Shown here one piece after another: positions 13,578 through 57,581 of a DNA stretch of 64,000 bases. The stretch is from an uncultured Candidatus Saccharibacteria bacterium (GTDB lineage Bacteria; Patescibacteriota; UBA1384; DTJR01): contig CAYYMZ010000002.1 of the NCBI GenBank assembly GCA_964473025.1, positions 3,241 to 67,240 on the forward strand. The letters run 5' to 3'. The translations under genes were made by a program, and so were the position numbers. The notes under the pieces are model-generated. The model searched no databases and had not been told where the DNA came from. It worked only from the letters and a program-made list of their open reading frames with translations. Numbering within the stretch: position 1 is the first letter of the stretch; every line of letters begins with the position of its first letter.

Positions 13578-13651
13578 ATTTAAACAAATTTAAATTTTAT
13601 ACAACGAGTAGTATAGCAAACTTTAAATAATAAAATCAAGAGTTAGGCATT

Positions 13652-13697
13652 GCAAGGGTAAGGGGGCCTAGTTTCGAAGCAGCCCCCTTACCCTTGC
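13652..13697 (-). terminator. strong 15-bp-stem hairpin between the mrdA-associated RNA element and greA
   Basis: 'gcaagggtaaggggg...(16-nt loop)...cccccttacccttgc', followed on the minus strand by a U-rich tract. Confidence 0.5.
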
Positions 13698-13774
13698 ACG
13701 AACCCAACCCCCTCACGATTTTCTAGGAGCGTAAAAAGGGTTAAATTCGAAAAATCGCTGCTAGATTATGAGTG

Positions 13775-13925
13775 AGGATGTTTTGCTTTGAGGCCGTCCG
13801 CAAGCGAGCAAGCCTGGTCCCAGCGCCCTTGGTTAAAGGTGTTGGGTTGCGAGCCGAGGTTTGAGCACGTTTTGTCGCTGGACAAAACGATGCGTGCCGA
13901 AAAGCAAAGATATCCGAGCGAACTT
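13775..13925 (-). ncRNA. candidate structured RNA, paralog A (unknown family), directly after the mrdA stop
   Basis: ~150 nt. Its conserved ends match the element at 51490..51630: minus-sense 5' 'UCGGCACGC', 3' 'CGGACGGCCUCAAAGCAAAACA'. The internal hairpin covaries between the copies: 'CGUUUUGUC-CAGC-GACAAAACG' here versus 'CGAUUUUC-CCAGCGU-GAAAAUCG' in B. Confidence 0.35.
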
Positions 13926-15837
13926 ACTTATTCCGATTCTCGGCCCACCAGGAATAAATATCGCGTGCTATAGGGGCGGCATATTCAAAGCCATCGCCTG
14001 CTCCCTCGACGATTACCGTTACGGCAATCTGGGGATTGTCATAAGGGGCAAAAGAGGTAAACCACGCGTGGGTTTTTCCTTCGTTGCCAAATTGCGCCGT
14101 GCCCGTTTTGGCAGCAACGTCAATTGGAAACGACTTTCCAAAAACAGAATAGGCGGAGCCCGACTCTACCGTCTGACGCATTCCTTCACGGACTACCTGC
14201 ATCGTCTCGGACGAATAGATATTATTTTTTATTAAACTGTCAGATTCGGTGAATTCTTTGATTTTATTACCATCCTGATCGAGAATCTGTGTAACCAGAT
14301 GGGGCTTAAAAAGCTTCCCACCGTTTGCAATCGATGAAGTAGCATTGCAAATTTGAAGGGGCGTGACCAGCAAATCTCCCTGCCCGATTGACATATTATA
14401 GGTGTTACCAATGTACCAATTTTCTCCGGTCTTTGACTTTTTCCATTCTTCGGTTGGAATAAAACCTGATTCTTCGGCGCTTAAATCGATTCCCGTCTCA
14501 TTGCCAAAACCGAACTTTTCCAGACCATTTTTAATCCTTTCCGGACCAAGGCCCGTTTGAATCGGCCCCCAACCTCCGCCGATTGCAAAGAAGAAAATAT
14601 TGTTGGATTCGGCAATCGCCCTCCTGACGCCTGTTACCCCATCGTGTTTTTTCCAGTCCGGAAAAGTCCATTGTCCAACCTTAATTGACGCCGGCGTTTC
14701 AAACGCAACCGAAGGGGAAACTACACCGTCTTCAAGTGCGGCCGAGGCAATAAAAGGTTTTATAGTAGATCCAGGTGGATAAGTGCCGGAAGTGGCCCGA
14801 TTAAACATTGGTAGGGATTTATCTTCAGTAATCTGCTTGTACTCATCCTGGCCTAAGCCCGCCGAAAATTTTGTGTTGTCGAAATCAGGCAAACTAACCA
14901 TCGCACGGATCATTCCGTCTCTTGGATCTTCTATAATCACCGTTCCTTGTGTTTTTAAATCGTTTAACTGTGCCTGAAGTATTTCGGTTACCTTAAGCTG
15001 TAAATCTTTATCAATTGAGGTCTTGACCGTATTACCAAGAGCTGGATCTGTTTGCGAGAGCAGCCGCACCAAATGACCATTTGCATCAACTTCCGCCCTT
15101 CTCTGCCCAGGTATTCCTTGCAAATAGTCATCGTACGTTTTTTCCAATCCACTTTTACCATTATATCCCGAAGCTAATAACGACGGTCTGGTACTTGCTT
15201 CTTCTTTTGAAACTTTGCCGACAAAGCCCAAAATATGGCTAAAAGACAGATCCAAATATTGACGACGATAGCTTGGGATAATTTCAAAACCACCATAGGA
15301 AACCAATCTTGACTTCAGGAGAAGCGCCTCGTCTCTATTGATATCGTCCTTGAGAACGGAGTAATCCGTTGCGTCAGTATTCGACTTAATTTTATCCCTC
15401 ACTTCGTCTTTAGACATTTGGACAATTTTAAATATTTTAGGATTTACCTGATCCAAACTTTTGAGTTTGTCCGTCTGGACGACGAGCTGATAGACCGTTG
15501 AATTGACGACCAGTGGGTTACCGTCCACGTCGGTGATTATCCCTCTTGGAGCGGCTATCGGGGTCGAGCGCAAACGGTTTCCTTCGGCGAGACGCAGGTT
15601 TACAAAACCCTCCTGAACCTGCAGTGTAAACAGCCTAATCGCCAAAAATAGGCAAAGCAAGACCGAGATAATAATTGGATAGTTTACTCCAACGGGTTTT
15701 TCCTTCGAAAAGATTTCGTCGCCGTGCGCTTCACGATCAAAATATGAGTGTTCACCCAACTTGTCAGATATTTTGCCTCGTACATCGTGGGATAAAAAAA
15801 CACCCTCACGCTTAGAATCCTTTTGATCTCTCTTCAT
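13924..15837 (-). CDS. mrdA: penicillin-binding protein 2 (elongasome transpeptidase)
   Basis: N-terminal TM and dimerisation domain; transpeptidase motifs 'STIKPF', 'SNN', 'KTGTAQ'. Adjacent to mreD/mreC/mreB. Confidence 0.88.
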   Translation of the reverse strand: MKRDQKDSKREGVFLSHDVRGKISDKLGEHSYFDREAHGDEIFSKEKPVGVNYPIIISVLLCLFLAIRLFTLQVQEGFVNLRLAEGNRLRSTPIAAPRGIITDVDGNPLVVNSTVYQLVVQTDKLKSLDQVNPKIFKIVQMSKDEVRDKIKSNTDATDYSVLKDDINRDEALLLKSRLVSYGGFEIIPSYRRQYLDLSFSHILGFVGKVSKEEASTRPSLLASGYNGKSGLEKTYDDYLQGIPGQRRAEVDANGHLVRLLSQTDPALGNTVKTSIDKDLQLKVTEILQAQLNDLKTQGTVIIEDPRDGMIRAMVSLPDFDNTKFSAGLGQDEYKQITEDKSLPMFNRATSGTYPPGSTIKPFIASAALEDGVVSPSVAFETPASIKVGQWTFPDWKKHDGVTGVRRAIAESNNIFFFAIGGGWGPIQTGLGPERIKNGLEKFGFGNETGIDLSAEESGFIPTEEWKKSKTGENWYIGNTYNMSIGQGDLLVTPLQICNATSSIANGGKLFKPHLVTQILDQDGNKIKEFTESDSLIKNNIYSSETMQVVREGMRQTVESGSAYSVFGKSFPIDVAAKTGTAQFGNEGKTHAWFTSFAPYDNPQIAVTVIVEGAGDGFEYAAPIARDIYSWWAENRNK

Positions 15838-25362: not shown

Positions 25363-25929
25363 TTGATTAAATTAACTCTTATGAAAATTCGTTCAGTAAA
25401 AGAAAATACGAAACGCAAAGGGGGCGCTCGTCATCTCAAATCGGCTCCGAGGCACGATATCTATTTGATTTTGGATAACATTAGATCGATGTACAACGTC
25501 GGAGCAATATTTAGAACTTGCGATGCTGTCAGGGTTAAAAAAATCTATCTTTGTGGGATGACCGCCACTCCACCCAGAGAGAAAATATTTAAGACCTCGC
25601 TCGGGGCTGTTGATTGGGTCCCCTGGGTTTACAAAAAATCGTCAATTGAAGCAATAAAAGAATTAAAATCTCTCAAAGTACAGATAGTTGCCTTAGAGCA
25701 AACAGATAAAAGTGTCGAATATCGGAATGCCAAATACAAAAAACCGGTTGCAGTTGTAATCGGTCACGAGTTGAGAGGCGTGTCTAAAGAAATCTTAAAA
25801 CAAGCCGACTTACACGTTGAAATACCAATGCACGGTCGTGCAAATAGTTTAAATGTCGCCACGGCGACAGGGATTATTATTTTTGAGGTGCTTTCACGAA
25901 TCATTAAGCAACCCACCAACCGCGGGTAA
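25363..25929 (+). CDS. SpoU/TrmH-family RNA 2'-O-methyltransferase
   Basis: 'LILDNIRSMYNVGAIFRTCDA', 'VIGHELRGV', 'IPMHGRANSLNVATATGIIIFE'. Confidence 0.85.
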   Translation: MIKLTLMKIRSVKENTKRKGGARHLKSAPRHDIYLILDNIRSMYNVGAIFRTCDAVRVKKIYLCGMTATPPREKIFKTSLGAVDWVPWVYKKSSIEAIKELKSLKVQIVALEQTDKSVEYRNAKYKKPVAVVIGHELRGVSKEILKQADLHVEIPMHGRANSLNVATATGIIIFEVLSRIIKQPTNRG

Positions 25930-27040
25930 ACATTATCGTAAACAGCCCCAACATTGTTAAGAACACGATTGTGATCAGGTCATCGACCCACTTTGTCTTC
26001 CCCCACTTGGCTAAAATTATGTAGAATGGGAAGGCAACAAGAGCCATGCGACTATAAGAAAGCATCGTGCCGCTAAAAAGAGGAGCGAGCAGTACTAAGA
26101 GGGCGTAAAGGATGTAAGAAATCCGAATCTTTTTAAAAGACATAGCGATCGCCAAGATAAAAAGCATGAAGAAGCCCCCGCCCATTAAAGCAGTAATGAA
26201 AGCACCCTCCGGCAAGAATAGATGGAAGGAAAAAATTGTCTTGATTTGATTAAAAAGTTCCTGAAAACCCTGCAAATTAATTCCGCGATGCCAACCAGTT
26301 TGCGCACCAAGAAAAGCAAATCGGTTATTAAGCAATCCACCAAGATAAAGAGAGTAGACAATGATTCCAAGTGGCGCCAAAAATGCTATCATTATCCCCT
26401 GGATTTTTAATTTTGTATTTTTGAGGTTTAATCCTTCGACAAAAAGGGGCACAATAAGGATGATTCCTATCAATCTCGTTGCTGAGGCAGCAATAGCAGA
26501 AAAGGAGGCCCAAAGTGGCTTTTGCAATCTGAAAAAATAAAAACTGAGCAATACAACGAATAAAAACAACGGCTCGCTGTAACCGGTCGCTAGAAAGAAG
26601 CTCATCGGGAAAAATAAAAGGTATTTAACCGATCTAAAAGAGCTTTTGTCGTCTAAGTCAAATCTGGCCAGCTTATACAGAAGGATGCAATCGGATAAAG
26701 TCAGCAAATTTGCCAGAATAAATCCGAGTACTCTTGTATCGCAAAATGAGAAGATTCTCTTAAAACCCTCAATCACTATTGGCCAAAACGGGAAAAAAGC
26801 AGGGGCTTGTGAATTTAATTTATATCCGAAGTCAGCGATTGCTGTATACCAACCGGAATCAAATGGTAGCCACATTGAGAGAATCGGGTGCAGGTCATTA
26901 TAAAAAACCGTTCTTGGGTATGAAGGCAGATTGAAAAAAGCAAAGTAAGCAACTAAGAAAAGTGCTAATCGCCAAGCGATAAATAGGAATATTATTCCGA
27001 GAATTTCGTTATTAAAAAATCTTTTTAGTTTTAAAAACAT
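25904..27040 (-). CDS. polytopic membrane protein, GT-C-like glycosyltransferase fold (PMT_2/DUF2029-like) suspected
   Basis: ~11 TM helices. ORF track 25904..27205 runs through tRNA-Leu; the start is reassigned to Met at 27040 ('MFLKLKRFF'). Confidence 0.5.
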   Translation of the reverse strand: MFLKLKRFFNNEILGIIFLFIAWRLALFLVAYFAFFNLPSYPRTVFYNDLHPILSMWLPFDSGWYTAIADFGYKLNSQAPAFFPFWPIVIEGFKRIFSFCDTRVLGFILANLLTLSDCILLYKLARFDLDDKSSFRSVKYLLFFPMSFFLATGYSEPLFLFVVLLSFYFFRLQKPLWASFSAIAASATRLIGIILIVPLFVEGLNLKNTKLKIQGIMIAFLAPLGIIVYSLYLGGLLNNRFAFLGAQTGWHRGINLQGFQELFNQIKTIFSFHLFLPEGAFITALMGGGFFMLFILAIAMSFKKIRISYILYALLVLLAPLFSGTMLSYSRMALVAFPFYIILAKWGKTKWVDDLITIVFLTMLGLFTIMFTRGWWVA

Positions 27041-27124
27041 CTTCTTTGATGCCGCAAATTGCCATGACCTAATTTTGATGATTGTAATTTTTATAACCCT
27101 CCCCCAATGCAACAAAAAGAACGT

Positions 27125-27211
27125 TGGTGCCCGAGGTCGGACTCGAACCGACAAGGCCTTTCGGCCACATGATTTTAAGTCATGCGCGTATACCAGTTCC
27201 GCCACTCGGGC
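27125..27211 (-). tRNA. tRNA-Leu (anticodon UAA), CCA encoded
   Basis: 'GCCCGAGUGGCGGAACUGGUAUACGCGC-AUGA-CUUAAAA-UCAU...' with a long variable arm and T-arm 'GGUUCGAGUCC'. Cloverleaf folded by eye. Confidence 0.85.
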
Positions 27212-27283: not shown

Positions 27284-28216
27284 TCAAAGATCAACAACGA
27301 AACCTGCTGCTTTGCGATGACCACCCCCCTCAAACAATCGCGCAAGCCGCGAAACATCTATCTTGTCTGATTCTGTGCGTAAGCTGGCTTTTATTTTACC
27401 AGTTTCGGTTTCAACGAGCAAGATAGCGATCTTTGTTTGGGGGATAGTATTAATTAAATTAACAATTCCAGAAGCATCATCTTCGGTTGCGCCGCACAAC
27501 TTAAGGTCAGATCTTGAAAGATAGGTTAATACTATTCCACCCTCCTTAACACGCATCTTTTTTAATGCAATGCCCCATAATTTCAATGTGGATGATTTGC
27601 GAGAAAAACTAAGGTTTTGCGAAACAAGGCCTATCCTACCACCTAGACGGAGACACTCGGAAGCAATTTTAAGCGTTTCGACGGTAACGTTGGGATGCTG
27701 AAATCCTCCGGTATCATAGTAAATTCCCGCTAAAATATAAGTGGCCATTCTCGCGTCTATATTTGCGTTCATGTATTTCAAAAGCTTAAAAACAATCTCT
27801 GCCGCAGCAGAAGCACGATCGTCTACCAAGTTAACTTTAGAGATTTTATGTAGATTATTTCTTAGATGGTGGTCAATATTGATTAATGGCTTGGTTTTAC
27901 AAACCTGCTCCAACCGAACGGGGAAGCCGGTTCGGTTAGCATCACCGCAATCAATTGCAAAAATCAGATCATAGTCCCCAAGCAGAAAATCATTTTTAAT
28001 TTCAGAAATACCGGGTAAAAAATTAAAAACGGGAGGGATTCCCTCCTTGACCGCGCAATCAACTTTTTTTCCGATTCCCTTCAGGTAATCGCAGAGAGCT
28101 AAGGACGATGAAATGGTGTCGCCATCGGGAAAGCTATGAAGGAGAATCAAAATGTTCTGCGAGCTTGTAATGAGTACTTTAATCTCTTCAAACTTCTGCA
28201 TTGGCAATTTCAACAA
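27284..28216 (-). CDS. nrnA: DHH/DHHA1 phosphoesterase, NrnA-like (nanoRNase/pAp phosphatase)
   Basis: 'HSFPDGDTISS' (DHH), 'GGGHRKAAG' (DHHA1). 310 aa. Confidence 0.8.
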   Translation of the reverse strand: MLKLPMQKFEEIKVLITSSQNILILLHSFPDGDTISSSLALCDYLKGIGKKVDCAVKEGIPPVFNFLPGISEIKNDFLLGDYDLIFAIDCGDANRTGFPVRLEQVCKTKPLINIDHHLRNNLHKISKVNLVDDRASAAAEIVFKLLKYMNANIDARMATYILAGIYYDTGGFQHPNVTVETLKIASECLRLGGRIGLVSQNLSFSRKSSTLKLWGIALKKMRVKEGGIVLTYLSRSDLKLCGATEDDASGIVNLINTIPQTKIAILLVETETGKIKASLRTESDKIDVSRLARLFEGGGHRKAAGFVVDL

Positions 28217-28724
28217 AGTACGCCTCTTCTTCCGATTCTGCCTCCGCCTTTGTTATTTTAATTTGCTCTTCCTCCTTAAACGAAACACCATTTTTCTTCA
28301 AATCTTCTTTTGAACTTAAAGCGCCAGCATAAACAACAATTTTTGGTTCAATTTGTCCCACCTGTTCAACTGCTTCGCGGATATTACCATCAAGGCGAAC
28401 AACTAAAACTTCTGCGTTCGATAGCCTCTCGATGTCTTCTTTGGCAATTTTACCCTTAAAGCTGACAAACCCGAGGGTTAAATCCTCAAACTGAAAAATA
28501 TAGGTATTATCGTCAATTCCCTGAATGGACACGCCACCGGCTTCGTATTCTCCAGATCCCTCCAGCTCAAGATCGTTGACCATTATTTTATTGTCGAAGA
28601 CGATTAGGGCCGTTTTGGTTTTAATCTCTAGCTCGGATGACTTATTTTTTTGAATAATCATTATTGTTCTCCTTAGATATTTGACTTGGTTTATCATCAT
28701 ATCAGAAAAAGGGTAATTTATCAA
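28188..28724 (-). CDS. hypothetical protein
   Basis: 178-aa ORF with an acidic C-terminus and no recognisable motifs. Confidence 0.4.
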   Translation of the reverse strand: MINYPFSDMMINQVKYLRRTIMIIQKNKSSELEIKTKTALIVFDNKIMVNDLELEGSGEYEAGGVSIQGIDDNTYIFQFEDLTLGFVSFKGKIAKEDIERLSNAEVLVVRLDGNIREAVEQVGQIEPKIVVYAGALSSKEDLKKNGVSFKEEEQIKITKAEAESEEEAYFVEIANAEV

Positions 28725-30428: not shown

Positions 30429-31505
30429 TTAATCTAAAAGACGCAGACCGATTCTTCTCGACTCTGGCTGAAGTTCGATAATCTCAAATTTTTTCTTGTC
30501 ACCGGATTGCAGAGCTTTGATTTTTGCCACGTCGCCCGAGGATGAAGATGCGTGCACCAAACCATCCAAACCATCTTGAATTCTGACAAATGCACCGTAG
30601 GCGGTAACCTTGCTAACCTCACCATCTATTTTTTGGCCAACGCGCAATTTCTTCATTTCATCAACCCACGGATCAGGCATAAGCCGTTTGATTGAGAGCG
30701 AGATTTTACCGTTTTCGATTTTGACAATCTTGGCTTTTACTTTTTGCCCAATCTTGAAAAGCTTGTTTAAATCATCGACATGATCCCAAGAAACCTCTGA
30801 AATGTGGATAAGACCTTCGAATGATTGAACGTTGACGAAAATACCAAAGTGGGCAATTCCCGTAATCGTACCTTCAACCTCCTGGCCGATTTCAAATGCA
30901 CTTTCGGCTCCACCCAAAGCTTCATTAGCCGCCATTTTTTCCGAAAAAATCAGCTTTTCTTCTTTTTTGTCTGTAGCAATAATTTTGACGGTGAGAGTTT
31001 CACCAATCAGTCGTTTTAACTTACCTAAAATTTGTGACGGATCGCCGCCATCAACTCGCGGATAATGCTCGGAAGATAACTGGGAAACAGGTAAGAAACC
31101 GGAAATGCCGCCGACCTCGATCATTAAACCGCCGCGGTTGGCATTAACAGCCTTTGCTTCAACCAACGTTCCTTTATCTTTTTTATCATCCAAAGTTTCC
31201 CAAAGGCGATCACGATCGGCACGACGAAAACTCAAAACAACATAACCATCCTTATTCTCCATGGAAACAACATTTGCCCTGGCTTCATCTCCAGGAACTA
31301 ATTCGTTTGTATCAAAAGAAAATTCTTTCTCCGGAACAAAACCATAAGCTAACCCGCCAATATCACACAAGATTTTATGGCTACCTGTTGAGACGATTTT
31401 ACAGGTTACGGTTGCGCCAATATCAAACGGAACCAAAGCTGTGCCCACGCTCTCAACGAGGGAATCCATGTCTGCTGGTTTTGTTTTAGCGGTTTTTGAT
31501 GCCAT
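30429..31505 (-). CDS. rpsA: 30S ribosomal protein S1-like (four S1 domains, short form)
   Basis: Repeated S1 OB-fold units ('GxV..i..fGaFV'). 358 aa. Confidence 0.75.
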   Translation of the reverse strand: MASKTAKTKPADMDSLVESVGTALVPFDIGATVTCKIVSTGSHKILCDIGGLAYGFVPEKEFSFDTNELVPGDEARANVVSMENKDGYVVLSFRRADRDRLWETLDDKKDKGTLVEAKAVNANRGGLMIEVGGISGFLPVSQLSSEHYPRVDGGDPSQILGKLKRLIGETLTVKIIATDKKEEKLIFSEKMAANEALGGAESAFEIGQEVEGTITGIAHFGIFVNVQSFEGLIHISEVSWDHVDDLNKLFKIGQKVKAKIVKIENGKISLSIKRLMPDPWVDEMKKLRVGQKIDGEVSKVTAYGAFVRIQDGLDGLVHASSSSGDVAKIKALQSGDKKKFEIIELQPESRRIGLRLLD

Positions 31506-31893
31506 TTTTTTGATACTTTTCCCTTCTCTTGAACTCTCGATATTTATACCATAATGCTGAAACTCTAGCTATACGGTAGTATAACAAAAATAAAAACCAA
31601 ATCAACCATATAATCAGAATTATTAGGAAAAACAACTTTTTAACTTGAAAGCCCGTAAGATATATGGCTAGCAAAAAAACTAAAGTTAATGGTATGTACA
31701 GGAGGAAATCACCGATCCATTTGACAAACCGCCTATAAAAACGCGGGGTTTTCCTCTTTTCAATAAATAACTGCAGGACAATACCGCAAATTGCAATCAA
31801 AGCTAACGCAATTAAGGCAATAATTGCGTTTCGACTGGTTAGATTAATGCTTTCGTTAAGATAAGCAACGCTGAAAATAGTTGAAATCTGCAT
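31486..31893 (-). CDS. hypothetical membrane protein (3-4 TM helices)
   Basis: 135-aa hydrophobic ORF. Confidence 0.4.
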   Translation of the reverse strand: MQISTIFSVAYLNESINLTSRNAIIALIALALIAICGIVLQLFIEKRKTPRFYRRFVKWIGDFLLYIPLTLVFLLAIYLTGFQVKKLFFLIILIIWLIWFLFLLYYRIARVSALWYKYREFKRREKYQKNGIKNR

Positions 31894-31940: not shown

Positions 31941-32116
31941 TGGTGCCGGGGGACAGAGTCGATCACAAGTCCAAATCTGCTGATTTGGCTCGCGATCCCC
32001 GCTCGGCCCCGTCGGGCCTGCGCGCTCCGCCTCTTGTCGACTGGCTCTCAAGTTATCGGCCAGTCGTCCCCGTCAGTTACAATCCTGTTTTGCTAATGCA
32101 AAACCAGGATTTGAAT
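31941..32116 (-). repeat. GC-rich ORF-less element el1, immediately 3' of tRNA-Phe; ends with a 22-nt copy of the tRNA-Phe 3' terminus (T-loop C56 to CCA)
   Basis: Minus-sense 3' end '...ACUUGUGA|UCGACUCUGUCCCCCGGCACCA' equals the last 22 nt of tRNA-Phe. Internal motifs 'GCGAUCCCCGCUCGG' and 'AAAUCAGCAGAUUU' are shared with el2, el4 and el5. Confidence 0.65.
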
Positions 32117-32349: not shown

Positions 32350-32496
32350 TGGTGCGTCCAAGAGGACTCGGTCACAAGTTCGCGCCTGCTGGTGCGCCTC
32401 GCGACCCCGCCTCGCGCCCGTCGGCGCTGCGGCCTTCTCGTCCTCGGCTCCCAAATATTTGTTTGTCCTGGCCCTTCAGGCCCGGCCAAACAAATC
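32350..32496 (-). repeat. GC-rich ORF-less element el2, immediately 3' of tRNA-Val; ends with a 21-nt copy of the tRNA-Val 3' terminus
   Basis: Minus-sense 3' end '...AACUUGUGAC|CGAGUCCUCUUGGACGCACCA' is identical to tRNA-Val from T-loop C56. Motifs 'GAGAAGGCCGCAGCGCCGACGGGCGCGAGGCGGGGUCGCGAG'. Confidence 0.65.
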
Positions 32497-34321: not shown

Positions 34322-34470
34322 GGTTTATCTCGTTGGTGCCGAAGGCGAGACTCGGTCACGCATAAAATTCTGCTGAATTTTTGCGCGACCCCGGCTCGGC
34401 ACCGTCGTGCCTGCGCCTTTCGAGTTTTCTCGGGCGCACCAACGAAATCCAAACCCTATCGGGTTTATCT
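34322..34470 (-). repeat. GC-rich ORF-less element el4; ends with a 34-nt copy of the 3' end (plus 13 nt of downstream flank) of the tRNA-like fragment at 34474..34532
   Basis: 'gggtttatctcgttggtgccgaaggcgagactcg' occurs at 34322..34355 and again at 34461..34494. Internal 'GCGCGACCCCGGCUCGGCACCGUCGUGCCUGCGCC' and 'AAAUUCUGCUGAAUUU' motifs. Confidence 0.6.
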
Positions 34471-48314: not shown

Positions 48315-49484
48315 ATGAAAAAATTTTCCAAAATATTCTATTTTGTTTTAATAGCCGCGTCTTTAGTTTTAATCCCATTGGGAGTTGCGCACGCCCAGTA
48401 TTCATTTACTCCAGAGTTAGGGAAGTGGTATTACGTCGGTGGTCCCGATACCTTAAATAAAAACAATCTAATCAGACTTGCCCCCGATACAGGATGGGAA
48501 GGTCCGTGCAGCCTTGGAACAAACAGCGATCATTACCACAATGGCCAAGCCAGCGACCCGAGCAAACCAAACCTCCGCGACAGCAAAATCAGCACTAAGA
48601 ACTCAACTTTTGAATACGCGGTTGTATTTACAAAAAAAATTGATAGTCAGTCCGATATTGACCATTGGGTAAATTTAACAGACCCTATAAGCGAACCGGA
48701 TTATGGACTTTTGAGATGTACTGAAAAAAACGGCGATTTCAGCTGCCAGATTCCTGCGACTGTCAAAGGATTAGTTAAAGAAATGCAATACCTAGACAAC
48801 TGGACAGATTCCAGTACGGGCACAGTTTATGTTGGAACTCACTCCGTTTTAAAAAACATAAAAGACAAACCCGAGTGCGAGTTTTATTACCGTAAAGTCG
48901 CCGATTACTCCTCTTCTCAAGTTGCGCCAGCTGCGCAATCAAATGATTCGGATGCAACACTTGCCCAGACTAATAACCCCAATTCGGTAACCAATTACCC
49001 CGTAGGGAGTTGTGTCGAAAATCCTAAAGGCAGTGGTATCCAATGGCAACAATTGGCTGATGGTAGCTGGGCTCCGTCAGGTGATCCGCTTAATTTCTGC
49101 GAAACAGGTGGGCTGCCTTCAAATTGGCAGGACTCAACCCAATATAACCCGTGGTTGAGGTCAGGGCTTGACTATCAGTTCCCATACACTCAAAACATCG
49201 GTTATTCTCCTTGGGGCACAAACTACCCCGGCGGTTACGGCAACTATCAAGATTATTTTATAAACTGTGTTATAGCTCAAAGCATTGTCTCGCGCCCTGA
49301 ATGCCAGATGTTTCCCCGTATTTCCAATTTTTATCTTAATCCTTATAATTCTAATAACGCCCTAACTGTTGGCGGGGTTCTCAACGGGCAAGTAGTAGCC
49401 GCGCAGATTCCGCTAAGCAAAAAAGTTAGCGAAATCGTTAAAACCGTCGCAATGGGTTGGACTCTAAGCCAACTGTTTAAATAA
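48315..49484 (+). CDS. hypothetical secreted Cys-containing protein
   Basis: Signal peptide 'MKKFSKIFYFVLIAASLVLIPLGVAHA'. No known motifs. Confidence 0.5.
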   Translation: MKKFSKIFYFVLIAASLVLIPLGVAHAQYSFTPELGKWYYVGGPDTLNKNNLIRLAPDTGWEGPCSLGTNSDHYHNGQASDPSKPNLRDSKISTKNSTFEYAVVFTKKIDSQSDIDHWVNLTDPISEPDYGLLRCTEKNGDFSCQIPATVKGLVKEMQYLDNWTDSSTGTVYVGTHSVLKNIKDKPECEFYYRKVADYSSSQVAPAAQSNDSDATLAQTNNPNSVTNYPVGSCVENPKGSGIQWQQLADGSWAPSGDPLNFCETGGLPSNWQDSTQYNPWLRSGLDYQFPYTQNIGYSPWGTNYPGGYGNYQDYFINCVIAQSIVSRPECQMFPRISNFYLNPYNSNNALTVGGVLNGQVVAAQIPLSKKVSEIVKTVAMGWTLSQLFK

Positions 49485-51438: not shown

Positions 51439-51489
51439 GTATGTTATAAGATATTATATTTGGCTGCTTGATGCAAGTAGTTAAACAGT

Positions 51490-51630
51490 GCGAAGGTGTT
51501 TTGCTTTGAGGCCGTCCGGAGCCCGAATGGGCATGGTTTCTGCCTTAGCAGAAGAATGAGGGCGAGGTTGAGCGCGATTTTCACGCTGGGAAAATCGACG
51601 CGTGCCGAGAAGTAAGGATACCTGAGCAAT
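51490..51630 (-). ncRNA. candidate structured RNA, paralog B (unknown family), directly after the pcrA stop and upstream of the 3D-domain gene
   Basis: Shares 22-nt 'tgttttgctttgaggccgtccg' and '..gcgtgccga.aag.aa.gata.c.gagc.a' blocks with 13775..13925. It carries the compensatory hairpin described for paralog A. Confidence 0.35.
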
Positions 51631-51633
51631 TTT

Positions 51634-53499
51634 TCATAACTCGATTACCTCAATTTCATCTTGCGGAAGTTCGGTCAAAAATCTTGAGGGGGTTGACTGC
51701 TGAAAACTGCCATAAACAAACCGGCTAAGCGAATACCCCAAATAAAGACGTTCCATGGCACGCGTCATACCAACATAAAACAGACGGCGCTCTTCCTCGA
51801 GCTGGAATTGATCGCCAAGGGAGTTTGCGTGCGGGAAAAGACCCTCCTCCATGCCGGTAATAAAAACGACCGGAAATTCAAGCCCTTTGGCTAAATGCAC
51901 TGTCATGAGCGTCAGGACATCATCCGATTCTTTGTAATCATCAAGGTCGGAAACCAAGGCGACTCTTTCTAAAAATTCTTCAAGATTATTAAAATTAGAG
52001 GCCGCCGCTTTTAATTCCTCAATATTTTCAAGTCGGGTTTGTGATTCAAAAGTTCCATCACTTAAATAATCTTTATAAGACGAAATTCGGATTATTTCAC
52101 CGATTAAGGCGTCGGGTGAAGATGTGGCTGCTCTTGCGCGGAGTTCATCCATCATTTTTATAAAACTTGCGTATTTTGGGATAGCGTCTATGGCAGATTT
52201 GGGGTCGTCAAGAATTTTATTCAATGTTTTGTCCCCGATGCCTCTGGGCGGACAGTTGATAACACGGGAGAGAGAAATAACATCATCCGGATTTTGAATC
52301 AAACGAAGATATGCAATAATATCTTTTATTTCGCGTCTTTCATAAAATCGCACTCCCCCGAAAATACGGTAGGGGATCCCGTAGTTTAGAAGCTGTTCTT
52401 CAAAAAGTCGTGATTGCGCATTGGTGCGATATAACACGGCGAAGTCACTATATGACCGTCCCTCCCCTGCCCTAAGGGATGAAACTTCCTCTAGAAAAAA
52501 TTCTATCTCCCCTCTTTTTTCGTGCGCCCCCACCACCACAACCGGCGCACCGCTATCTTTTTTCGAGAATAGTTTTTTATCGGAGCGCATTGCGTTGTTT
52601 TTAATTACCCTCTGTGCGGCACTTAAAATTGGTATGGTTGAGCGGTAGTTTTCTTCCAAGAAAATAATTTTTGCGTCGGGATAATCTTTATTAAAATCTA
52701 AAATATTTTGAAACTTGGCCCCGCGAAAGGAGTAAATTGACTGCCAGTCGTCCCCTATTGCAAAGATGTTACGATTTTTATTCGCCAACAATTTTAAAAA
52801 TATATATTGGGCGTGGTTCGTATCTTGATATTCGTCGATTAAAATATATCGGAAACGGTTTTGATATTTGGCTAAAACGTCCAGCCGCGTCTGAAGAAGC
52901 TCAACTGTTTTAAAAATAAGGTCGTCAAAATCAAATGCGCCGGCCCCTTTCAAAATTTTTTCGTAGCGTGAAAAAACCTTTAGAACAATTTCCTGAAAAT
53001 GCTCCACGGCATATGCAGCGTATTGTTTGGCGCCGATCAATTCTCCCTTAGCTTGAGAAATATATGTTCTTATCGCCTTGGGGTTATACTTTTTGGGATC
53101 GATGTTTAATTCCGACATCGCTTTTTTGACAGCGCGGATGGCATCGTCTTCATCAAAAATGGTGAAGCTTTTTGGATAGTCCAAATTTTGGGCTTCGCGG
53201 CGTAAAATTTTAACGCAAATAGAGTGGAATGTTCCGAGCCAAAAAAGGTTTGATTTAATTTTTGAATCTGCCGACAGGAGCTTGTCGATTCTCTCGCGCA
53301 TATTATTGGCTGCTTTATTCGTAAAGGTAACCGCCAAAATATTATCGGGTAAAGCTTGTTTTTCTTTTATTAAATAAGCTAAGCGATGAGTAAGTGTTCT
53401 TGTTTTTCCCGATCCCGCTCCGGCAAGGATTAATACTGGCCCATCCGTCGCGAGGACCGCTTCCCTTTGTTGCTCATTTAAGCCGTCAAATATGTTCAT
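51634..53499 (-). CDS. pcrA: ATP-dependent DNA helicase PcrA/UvrD (superfamily 1)
   Basis: 'ILAGAGSGKTRTLTHR', 'DEYQDTN', 'TVHLAKGLEFPVVFI'. 621 aa. Confidence 0.9.
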   Translation of the reverse strand: MNIFDGLNEQQREAVLATDGPVLILAGAGSGKTRTLTHRLAYLIKEKQALPDNILAVTFTNKAANNMRERIDKLLSADSKIKSNLFWLGTFHSICVKILRREAQNLDYPKSFTIFDEDDAIRAVKKAMSELNIDPKKYNPKAIRTYISQAKGELIGAKQYAAYAVEHFQEIVLKVFSRYEKILKGAGAFDFDDLIFKTVELLQTRLDVLAKYQNRFRYILIDEYQDTNHAQYIFLKLLANKNRNIFAIGDDWQSIYSFRGAKFQNILDFNKDYPDAKIIFLEENYRSTIPILSAAQRVIKNNAMRSDKKLFSKKDSGAPVVVVGAHEKRGEIEFFLEEVSSLRAGEGRSYSDFAVLYRTNAQSRLFEEQLLNYGIPYRIFGGVRFYERREIKDIIAYLRLIQNPDDVISLSRVINCPPRGIGDKTLNKILDDPKSAIDAIPKYASFIKMMDELRARAATSSPDALIGEIIRISSYKDYLSDGTFESQTRLENIEELKAAASNFNNLEEFLERVALVSDLDDYKESDDVLTLMTVHLAKGLEFPVVFITGMEEGLFPHANSLGDQFQLEEERRLFYVGMTRAMERLYLGYSLSRFVYGSFQQSTPSRFLTELPQDEIEVIEL

Positions 53500-57405: not shown

Positions 57406-57581
57406 GCCTACCAGCAGGGATTCGGTCACCCGCCGAAATCTGCTGATTTCGCGGTCGACCCCGTTTATTAATTCCCTGTCGGATTATTCGCGAGTTCCAC
57501 CCTCGCGAAGCGCGCCGTCGCGCTCCGGCCTTCTCATCCCACCCGCCAAAATGGCTCGCCCCCTTCGGGTGCAATCCATTT
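57406..57581 (-). repeat. GC-rich ORF-less element el5, immediately 3' of tRNA-Met(CAU); ends with a degenerate copy of the tRNA 3' region ('GUGAC|CGAAUCCCUGCUGGUAGGCA')
   Basis: Shares 'GAGAAGGCCGGAGCGCGACGGCGCGC', 'GGGGUCGACCGCG' and 'AAAUCAGCAGAUUU' blocks with el1, el2 and el4. The first 40 nt after the tRNA CCA form a long hairpin. Confidence 0.6.

Follow-up and report, generated by a model that had tools for sequence, protein, structure and literature searches.

A probable family of small structured repeats at operon ends in a clade of Candidatus Berkelbacteria

Two homologous non-coding elements, here called copies A and B, lie between genes in a 64-kb stretch of contig CAYYMZ010000002.1 (hereafter the window, meaning the whole stretch of DNA that was analysed). 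On balance, they probably belong to a small family of structured, non-autonomous repeats, akin to miniature inverted-repeat transposable elements (MITEs), repetitive extragenic palindromic (REP) sequences and bcr1, and confined to one narrow clade of Candidatus Berkelbacteria, the Candidate Phyla Radiation (CPR) group to which GreA homologues assign the lineage. The copies are homologous, have a common fold with compensatory changes, and vary in presence, absence and orientation among close relatives, where terminal stumps stand at two 'empty' orthologous sites.

Four copies of a homologous non-coding element

The members of the family are listed below, with scores for A and B from a covariance model built on the four copies.

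Copy A: window 13770..13922, plus strand (the better-folding sense, antisense to mrdA and greA); cmsearch 173 bits, E 1.6e-41.
Copy B: window 51488..51630, plus strand; cmsearch 130 bits, E 1.2e-30.
Copy C: contig L012, 649-800, also present in L028, recovered by a metagenome scan; 7 nt after the yidC stop codon, upstream of tRNA-Ser.
Copy D: contig L016, 96-269, found among contigs encoding close homologues of the flanking proteins.

Reading of both regions and their alignment established the homology of A and B (aligned cores 13770-13922 and 51488-51630), at the places where a preliminary description of this DNA had put a pair of paralogous intergenic elements. The near-identical ends that it ascribed to them are equally real. 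The minus-sense 22-mer CGGACGGCCTCAAAGCAAAACA is identical in A and B and occurs exactly twice in the window, with no third match there even at 3 mismatches and 0 matches in 100 shuffles, and the motif of the other end, CTCGGCACGCRTCGWTTT, is also confined to these two sites within the window. The central hairpins were rightly said to differ in sequence yet to stay paired: they read CGTTTTGTC/GACAAAACG in A and CGATTTTC/GAAAATCG in B, and at the base an A-U pair has likewise been exchanged for G-C (GCA..TGC versus GCG..CGC).

Read in minus sense, A starts a few bases past the stop codon of a gene for a 637-aa PBP2-type transpeptidase (mrdA) and is followed by the gene for GreA, while B starts a few bases past that of a 621-aa UvrD/PcrA helicase (pcrA) and ends about 50 nt before the ATG of a gene for a DUF348+G5 protein. 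Pfam thus supports the flanking genes as first named (mrdA, greA, pcrA, G5), except that it detected no 3D domain in the G5 gene beside B. Copies A, B and C each have their outermost predicted base pair at 5-7 nt from the stop codon of the gene upstream: 5 nt from that of mrdA (13924-13926) in A and 7 nt from that of pcrA (51634-51636) in B.

The search of related genomes that had been proposed yielded two more members, C and D, bringing the distinct copies to four (A and B in the window, C in L012/L028, D in L016). Copy C sits in an rnpA-yidD-yidC operon adjoining dnaA. The copies are 139-172 bp long, the unit being put at about 140-175 bp, and have in common an invariant block of 22-27 nt. 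Pairwise identity among A, C and D is 89-90.5%, despite their differing loci or orientations, and B forms a divergent subfamily that is 68-72% identical to the other three. The sampled density is about one copy per 30-40 kb (2 in the 64-kb window, 1 each in two related contigs). The four-copy covariance model found no further copies in ~245 kb of related contigs, nor in the window with all filters off. Neither nhmmer nor the covariance model, the latter run both filtered and unfiltered, detected diverged copies, and collections of viral contigs, plasmids and phages gave no match to the repeat. An exact 20-mer scan of 185,579 genomes (one per species) returned a single match, in a Rubricoccaceae metagenome-assembled genome, which we rejected as a copy: it is 22 nt long, adjoins an unrelated terminator, has no further similarity, and is about what chance would give for a database of this size. 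The metagenome scan returned the Rubricoccaceae sequence again, together with the genuine copy C.

At the Rfam gathering thresholds only tRNAs were found in the window, and at E<=10 (4227 models) there was no credible match for A and nothing for B; the best matches near A are spurious miRNA models on an adjacent hairpin (28.7 bits, where the threshold is 90). This agrees with the preliminary statement that neither copy corresponds to RNase P, signal recognition particle (SRP) RNA, tmRNA, 6S or a c-di-AMP riboswitch. Full-text literature searching found nothing specific on repeats or structured RNAs of CPR bacteria (Patescibacteria). The family is therefore undescribed, neither Rfam nor the plasmid and phage collections nor the literature searched having produced a match. 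Elements of this kind are already known. A coding role was also considered, on account of a shared ATG/GTG-initiated frame (MFCFEAVR...), and rejected as an artefact of nucleotide conservation: the frame spans 28, 39, >49 and 19 codons in the four copies, has different end points in them, is interrupted by indels whose lengths are not multiples of three, and has no usable ribosome-binding spacing.

Presence, absence and orientation in close relatives

The spacer between mrdA and greA measures 346 nt in the window, 106 nt in L014/L015 (GreA 93% identical), 109 nt in L017/L018 (80%) and 71 nt in L019 (79%). In L016, whose GreA is 94% identical, the full copy D stands directly upstream of the greA -35 box and is co-oriented with greA, that is, inverted relative to A within the same spacer. 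In L014 only the last ~22-30 nt of the unit remain, at exactly the position that they occupy in L016. Only the window's species has the 130 nt that separate A from the greA promoter and contain the large hairpin described below. The spacer between pcrA and the G5 gene shows a similar variation, with 195 nt in the window, 67 nt in L020/L021 (G5 protein 92% identical), 49 nt in L022, and 206 nt in L023, where the element is absent. In L020, GCGAGGAT is directly followed by ACCCGAGAGACC: both unit termini are joined and the ~135-nt interior is gone. Downstream of yidC, no copy was found in the spacers of relatives whose YidC is 80-81% identical.

Relatives whose flanking proteins are 92-94% identical thus have the same spacers at 67-106 nt, with terminal stumps only, and taken over the three loci, very close relatives differ in having a full copy, an inverted one, a stump or an empty site. 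Since in the closest relatives the element is missing, reduced to a stump, inverted or located elsewhere, it behaves as a mobile or unstable repeat, and its neighbours are three kinds of flanking gene that are mutually unrelated. These comparisons argue against the conserved structured RNA tied to its neighbouring genes that had been envisaged at first. The thought that B might recall ydaO/c-di-AMP control is not supported either: there is no Rfam match for it, and in the close relatives sampled the pcrA-G5 spacer is without the element.

Two simple explanations of the inverted orientation were rejected. Recombination between the terminal repeats does not account for the outermost distinguishing bases of A, which are inverted too with respect to D, and inversion of a larger segment does not fit the outer flanks of A and D, which are unrelated.

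Several metagenome contigs end in or beside the repeat or its spacer (L006 at 1-23, L016 at 1, and L015 at its contig end), L006 beginning inside the invariant block. Such ends are in keeping with repeated or polymorphic sequence breaking assemblies.

A branched fold with strand polarity

On the window's plus strand the four copies have a common predicted architecture, consisting of a closing helix (P1) that encloses a junction with a long arm (P2/P3) and a hairpin (P4); in copy B, two short hairpins take the place of the P2/P3 arm. The parts located in the window are as follows.

Copy A, 13774..13800, plus strand: P1 5' strand, the left terminal inverted repeat, GAGGATGTTTTGCTTTGAGGCCGTCCG; its 22-nt core is identical in all four copies.
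Copy B, 51492..51518, plus strand: invariant block, the same as 13774..13800 of A.
Copy A, 13893..13919, plus strand: P1 3' strand, the right inverted repeat, GCGTGCCGAAAAGCAAAGATATCCGAGC.
Copy A, 13865..13893, plus strand: hairpin P4, GCACGTTTTGTC...GACAAAACGATGC, the covarying hairpin of the preliminary description.
Copy B, 51572..51601, plus strand: hairpin P4, GCGCGATTTTC...GAAAATCGACGC.

P1 is a helix of ~20 bp in which 5'-GC GA GGAUGUUUUGCUUU GA GGCC pairs with GCC GA AAAGCAAAGAUAUCC GA GC-3', interrupted by two symmetric GA/GA internal loops (tandem G.A) that are invariant in all copies. At the DNA level it corresponds to imperfect terminal inverted repeats of ~24-26 bp, GCGAGGATGTTTTGCTTTGAGGCC and, read from the other end, GGCTTTTCGTTTCTATAGGCTCG, with unit termini GGATGTTTTGCTTTGAGGCC. 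Its inverted termini form 20 pairs, with 98.8% of cells paired.

Across 49 pairs in four copies, standard pairing holds in 95.4% of cells and both sides are changed in 9 pairs, in a sample of four sequences of which three are ~90% identical. None of 500 shuffles did as well, and slid controls were 36-50% paired. At the base of P1, for instance, GGAU/AUCC in A and C becomes GGGU/ACCC in D and AGGU/ACCU in B. The proposal that the stems are kept by compensatory change is therefore upheld; the step from there to a functional RNA is not, because covariation of two paralogous hairpins alone is no such indication.

Predicted folding energies differ markedly between the strands (minus-sense energies refer to A and B).

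Copy A: plus -67.2 kcal/mol, z -5.5; minus -47.2 kcal/mol, z -2.4.
Copy B: plus -57.8 kcal/mol, z -3.9; minus -41.0 kcal/mol, z -2.2.
Copy C: plus -58.8 kcal/mol, z -3.3.
Copy D: plus -71.3 kcal/mol, z -3.25.
RNAalifold consensus: plus -48.6; minus -33.8.

For A and B, the plus sense thus has an advantage of about 17-20 kcal/mol, with better z-scores as well. There are 15 G.U cells against 5 A.C cells, one G.U being present in all four copies, a count that is biased toward the plus sense because the structure behind it was predicted on that sense. The G/U-rich 5' strand of P1 is invariant, and all changes on its partner strand are A>G or C>U transitions that keep wobble pairs; B and D depart from the 3' strand of A only by A>G and C>T, giving G.U in plus sense. 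In the minus sense of B, three C.A mismatches disrupt the closing stem; the P4 hairpin forms in minus sense too. Templated correction within quasi-palindromes can mimic compensatory change, but would not give the wobble pattern. Judging from these predicted structures, the plus strand is probably the one under single-strand constraint, opposite to the minus sense that had been taken as the structured one: it folds better and holds the G.U pairs and the tandem G.A loops. This asymmetry leaves room for a structured or antisense RNA of the plus strand and for mobilisation of folded single-stranded DNA, both of which are considered below.

In copy D the P4 loop is enlarged by a structured insertion of 22 nt (L016 123-230 compared with window 13865-13893), made up of two perfect mini-hairpins, GCACC-TTA-GGTGC and GCCCC-GAA-GGGGC, the second of which reads CCCC-UUCG-GGGG on the other strand. 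It may be a nested micro-insertion.

Transcriptional context

Two further features lie between copy A and greA.

13640..13710, minus strand: a separate strong hairpin, with an 18-bp perfect stem (13651-13698) and a 9-bp outer stem (13640-13648 with 13702-13710); free energy -48.5 kcal/mol, z -7.7.
13610..13639, minus strand: promoter-like site of greA, TTGATT, 18-nt spacer, TG-TATACT; conserved in relatives.

The hairpin was missed by a simple terminator scan because of its 12-nt loop. It is followed by the U-rich tract UUGAUUUUAUUAUUU, abuts the greA -35 box, and is probably the intrinsic terminator of the mreBCD-mrdA operon. Its existence had been noted before, and it proves stronger than stated (18 + 9 bp). 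It does not belong to the repeat family: no homologue was found in relatives or beside B, C or D, and it is species-specific. Two metagenome contigs, L008 and L009, break inside it. The promoter-like site is the point at which homology with the 'empty' spacers resumes.

Because A lies between the mrdA stop codon and this hairpin, which is followed by UUGAUUUUAUUAUUU and abuts the greA promoter, it would very probably be carried in the 3' untranslated region (UTR) of mrdA in minus sense, its weaker-folding one. B lies between pcrA and the G5 gene without a terminator. On the plus strand, a scan for sigma-70 consensus promoters found none upstream of A or B, and there is no terminator-like site beside either. 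Outside the units the four copies have unrelated sequence, with neither an upstream motif nor a terminator conserved among them, and for these reasons an independent small RNA gene is not supported.

Interpretation as a non-autonomous repeat

The repeat resembles MITEs in its small size (<~400 bp), its lack of a transposase open reading frame (ORF), its imperfect terminal inverted repeats, and its presence/absence polymorphism at orthologous sites in both orientations, seen across the three loci compared. A variable core, occurrence at several loci, erosion to stumps, the lack of a promoter of its own and unrelated neighbour genes together make up a repeat-like set of traits. In the scheme that we propose, the unit would be a ~20-bp closing stem around a variable branched core (the P2/P3 arm and P4), inserted in either orientation into very short operon-end spacers and later deleted from them, with terminal stumps left behind. 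Spread would occur by transposition in trans or by another copy-and-paste route. Insertion 5-7 nt after a stop codon would follow from the only dispensable DNA being there, since no other part of a 50-100-nt spacer remains outside the downstream promoter. One single strand, the window's plus strand, would be selected for folding, as RNA or as single-stranded DNA, and a unit transcribed with its upstream operon could act as a 3'-end stem-loop module affecting mRNA decay, read-through or translation termination.

The erosion itself may have a replicative basis. In the stumps of L014 and L020 and in the copy of L016, the strongly folding strand is in gene sense. For genes co-oriented with replication, the gene-sense strand is the lagging-strand template. 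We speculate, from six sites only, that hairpin-driven slippage on this template explains the erosion of those copies.

A number of points weigh against this interpretation. Calling the repeat 'multi-copy' rests on little data, with only four copies known. No direct repeat that could be a target-site duplication stands at consistent offsets in the four copies, and the 'empty' sites are too rearranged for exact junctions. An autonomous element with the same inverted repeats was not found, the end motifs occurring only at copies of the repeat. Neither a transposase nor a reverse transcriptase was detected by Pfam among the 24 window ORFs scanned, several of which have no Pfam match, nor in the Pfam annotation of the syntenic relatives. 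The stump-bearing 'empty' sites could in principle be preferred target sequences instead of deletion scars. Finally, the strand-asymmetric pattern is unneeded for a protein-recognised DNA transposon; the invariant G/U-rich strand, the wobble-preserving transitions and the tandem G.A loops suggest an additional or alternative single-strand constraint. We therefore describe the repeat as working like the MITE/REP class, its membership being incomplete, since neither a target-site duplication nor a parent insertion sequence was found and no transposase was detected in the ORFs and annotated loci covered.

Alternative explanations

Among the other readings, the one that fares best takes the repeat as a family of functional structured RNAs of ~145 nt, read from the window's plus strand and built of the long closing helix, the two tandem G.A motifs and a three-way junction. 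Transcription would be antisense to the 3' ends of mrdA, pcrA and yidC, the product would be an antisense or trans-acting RNA or a protein-binding scaffold, and the patchy distribution would reflect rapid turnover. The folding energies, the RNAalifold consensus, the G.U excess and the invariant 5' strand of P1 with its wobble-preserving partner speak for it, as do the tolerance of the P4 loop for the structured insertion of D and the position of the 3' end, which in A, B and C adjoins the stop codon of a convergent essential gene. Against this stand the missing promoter-like sites upstream of A and B and the absence of a conserved upstream motif or terminator, as well as the opposite orientation of D relative to its neighbours and the lack of the element at the same loci in close relatives. 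The G.U count is moreover subject to the bias already mentioned, and the sample is small and mostly close-knit. We regard a functional plus-strand RNA as unlikely. A bolder version, which we hold to be very unlikely, would see here a new class of mobile structured CPR RNA, with a protein-binding closing helix and a three-way junction on the plus strand, whose transcript, running into the convergent 3' end of mrdA, pcrA or yidC, would serve as a locus-specific antisense regulator or guide.

Mobilisation or recombination as folded single-stranded DNA, in the manner of the hairpin derivatives of IS200/IS605 (PATEs) or of integron attC sites, would explain strand-specific folding without transcription. 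It would fit the folding asymmetry between the strands, the failure to find target-site duplications, the conserved ends around a variable centre, and the placement directly past stop codons. Set against it, no Y1/HUH transposase, integrase or cassette array was found in the scanned window ORFs or the annotated loci, the genes on either side are core housekeeping genes instead of cassettes, direct reading of the ends shows no attC R''/R' consensus (RYYYAAC / GTTRRRY), and IS200/IS605 ends are subterminal hairpins and not a 20-bp end-to-end stem. We give this route little credence.

Least credible is the preliminary reading as a minus-strand cis-acting RNA, either a 3'-UTR element of mrdA/pcrA or a leader or riboswitch of greA/G5. 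In its favour, read-through of the preceding gene would transcribe A, B and C in minus sense, A very probably lies in the mrdA 3' UTR, and P4 forms in minus sense as well. It has to contend with the much weaker minus fold and the three C.A mismatches in the closing stem of B, the other orientation of D, the unrelated downstream partners (greA, the G5 protein gene, tRNA-Ser), the lack of an Rfam riboswitch match, and the sampled close relatives, all of which lack the element at the greA and G5 spacers except L016, where it lies in opposite orientation upstream of greA.

Other elements in the window and its relatives

A second repeat family is present in the window as four 44-nt units (31956-31999, 32365-32408, 34349-34392 and 57419-57462), all between tRNA genes. 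Their ends are conserved (GAsTCGGTCAC ... CGCGACCCC), and their centre, CTGCTG, is invariant and enclosed by a stem that covaries. On the minus strand at 34330-34400, one unit lies within a tRNA-like module (GGTGCCGAG ... GAGTCTCGCCTTCGGCACCA) that received no call by ARAGORN or Rfam. The 44-nt units may be unusual tRNA-like genes or tRNA-linked repeats.

Downstream of yidC, two Berkelbacteria relatives (L012 480-600, minus strand; L024 2850-2930) have a conserved motif of ~55 nt, GCGCTGGTTTCGTyGCAG.CCCCG.AAGGGGGATCTATAGGCGAAGCCGCCAAACC, with no Rfam match at E<0.1; in L012 it comes after sequence that partly duplicates the 5' half of tRNA-Ser. The motif may represent a tRNA that is interrupted, or else a small RNA not yet recognised.

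Six window ORFs of 135-487 aa (25904-27205, 28188-28724, 31486-31893, 36686-37381, 38814-40277 and 48315-49484) have no Pfam match at E<1e-4. The first of them, which overlaps tRNA-Leu (27125-27211), may be an over-call.

Implications

CPR genomes are tiny and tightly packed, and full-text searching found no paper on small non-autonomous repeats in them. The present repeat would be a clean case of a structured repeat gained, flipped and eroded in 50-100-nt operon-end spacers by essential genes, and would indicate that even such reduced genomes carry structured repeats. It is useful as a strain marker, and may be one reason why contigs break in metagenome assemblies. It also carries a warning that covariation between two paralogous intergenic hairpins does not on its own point to a regulatory RNA. 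If the strand-specific constraints did reflect an expressed RNA, the repeat would be an antisense module facing cell-wall and replication genes. As judged from sequence, the finding is real but narrow, with four copies in one Berkelbacteria clade.

Comparison with known systems

In size range, and in a multi-stem fold with covariation, the repeat is comparable to Rfam RNAs and riboswitches (ydaO/c-di-AMP, 6S, SRP, RNase P, tmRNA), from which it differs in matching no model and in having no conserved genomic association, promoter or terminator. Unlike integron attC sites, its ends GCGAGGATGTTTTGC and GCAAAGATATCCGAGC are without RYYYAAC / GTTRRRY, and its neighbours are housekeeping genes.

REP/BIME units of enterobacteria are situated inside transcripts. 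Like the repeat, they are palindromic, occupy operon 3' ends and often stand a few nt from a stop codon. REPs are simple GC-rich hairpins of ~35 nt, clustered, present in hundreds of copies and associated with RAYT, whereas the repeat is about four times longer (~150 nt), branched and single, and no RAYT was found in the scanned ORFs. E. coli REP hairpins near stop codons can reportedly stall terminating ribosomes and alter the fate of the mRNA (PMC12306157). By analogy, such stalling may offer a parallel for A, B and C, at their distance of 5-7 nt from the stop codon.

Correia/NEMIS elements (Neisseria), like the MITEs RUP and ERIC, are 100-160 bp long, with terminal inverted repeats of ~25 bp that form a long RNA stem. 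The likeness to the repeat extends to size, terminal inverted repeats, insertion near genes in either orientation and strain-variable occupancy. A TA target duplication, known subtypes and hundreds of copies are features of Correia; at the repeat no duplication was found and no parent insertion sequence is known, and it stands apart by the marked strand asymmetry of its folding.

MITEs in general form long stem-loops as RNA (PMC3184786). The closest analogue so far described is the bcr1 repeat, known from the Bacillus cereus group (Okstad 2004; Klevan 2007; cited through PMC3184786). bcr1 is an element of ~155 bp with a strain-variable distribution that is transcribed and whose structure is kept by compensatory changes. 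The two have no sequence similarity, and 5-bp direct repeats flank bcr1, none having been found at the repeat. Tens to more than 100 copies of bcr1 per genome compare with 2 per 64 kb documented for the repeat, and transcription has been shown for bcr1. Both measure about 155 bp, lie between genes and are without coding capacity, both differ in distribution between close strains, and both have a branched or cruciform-like predicted RNA with compensatory changes.

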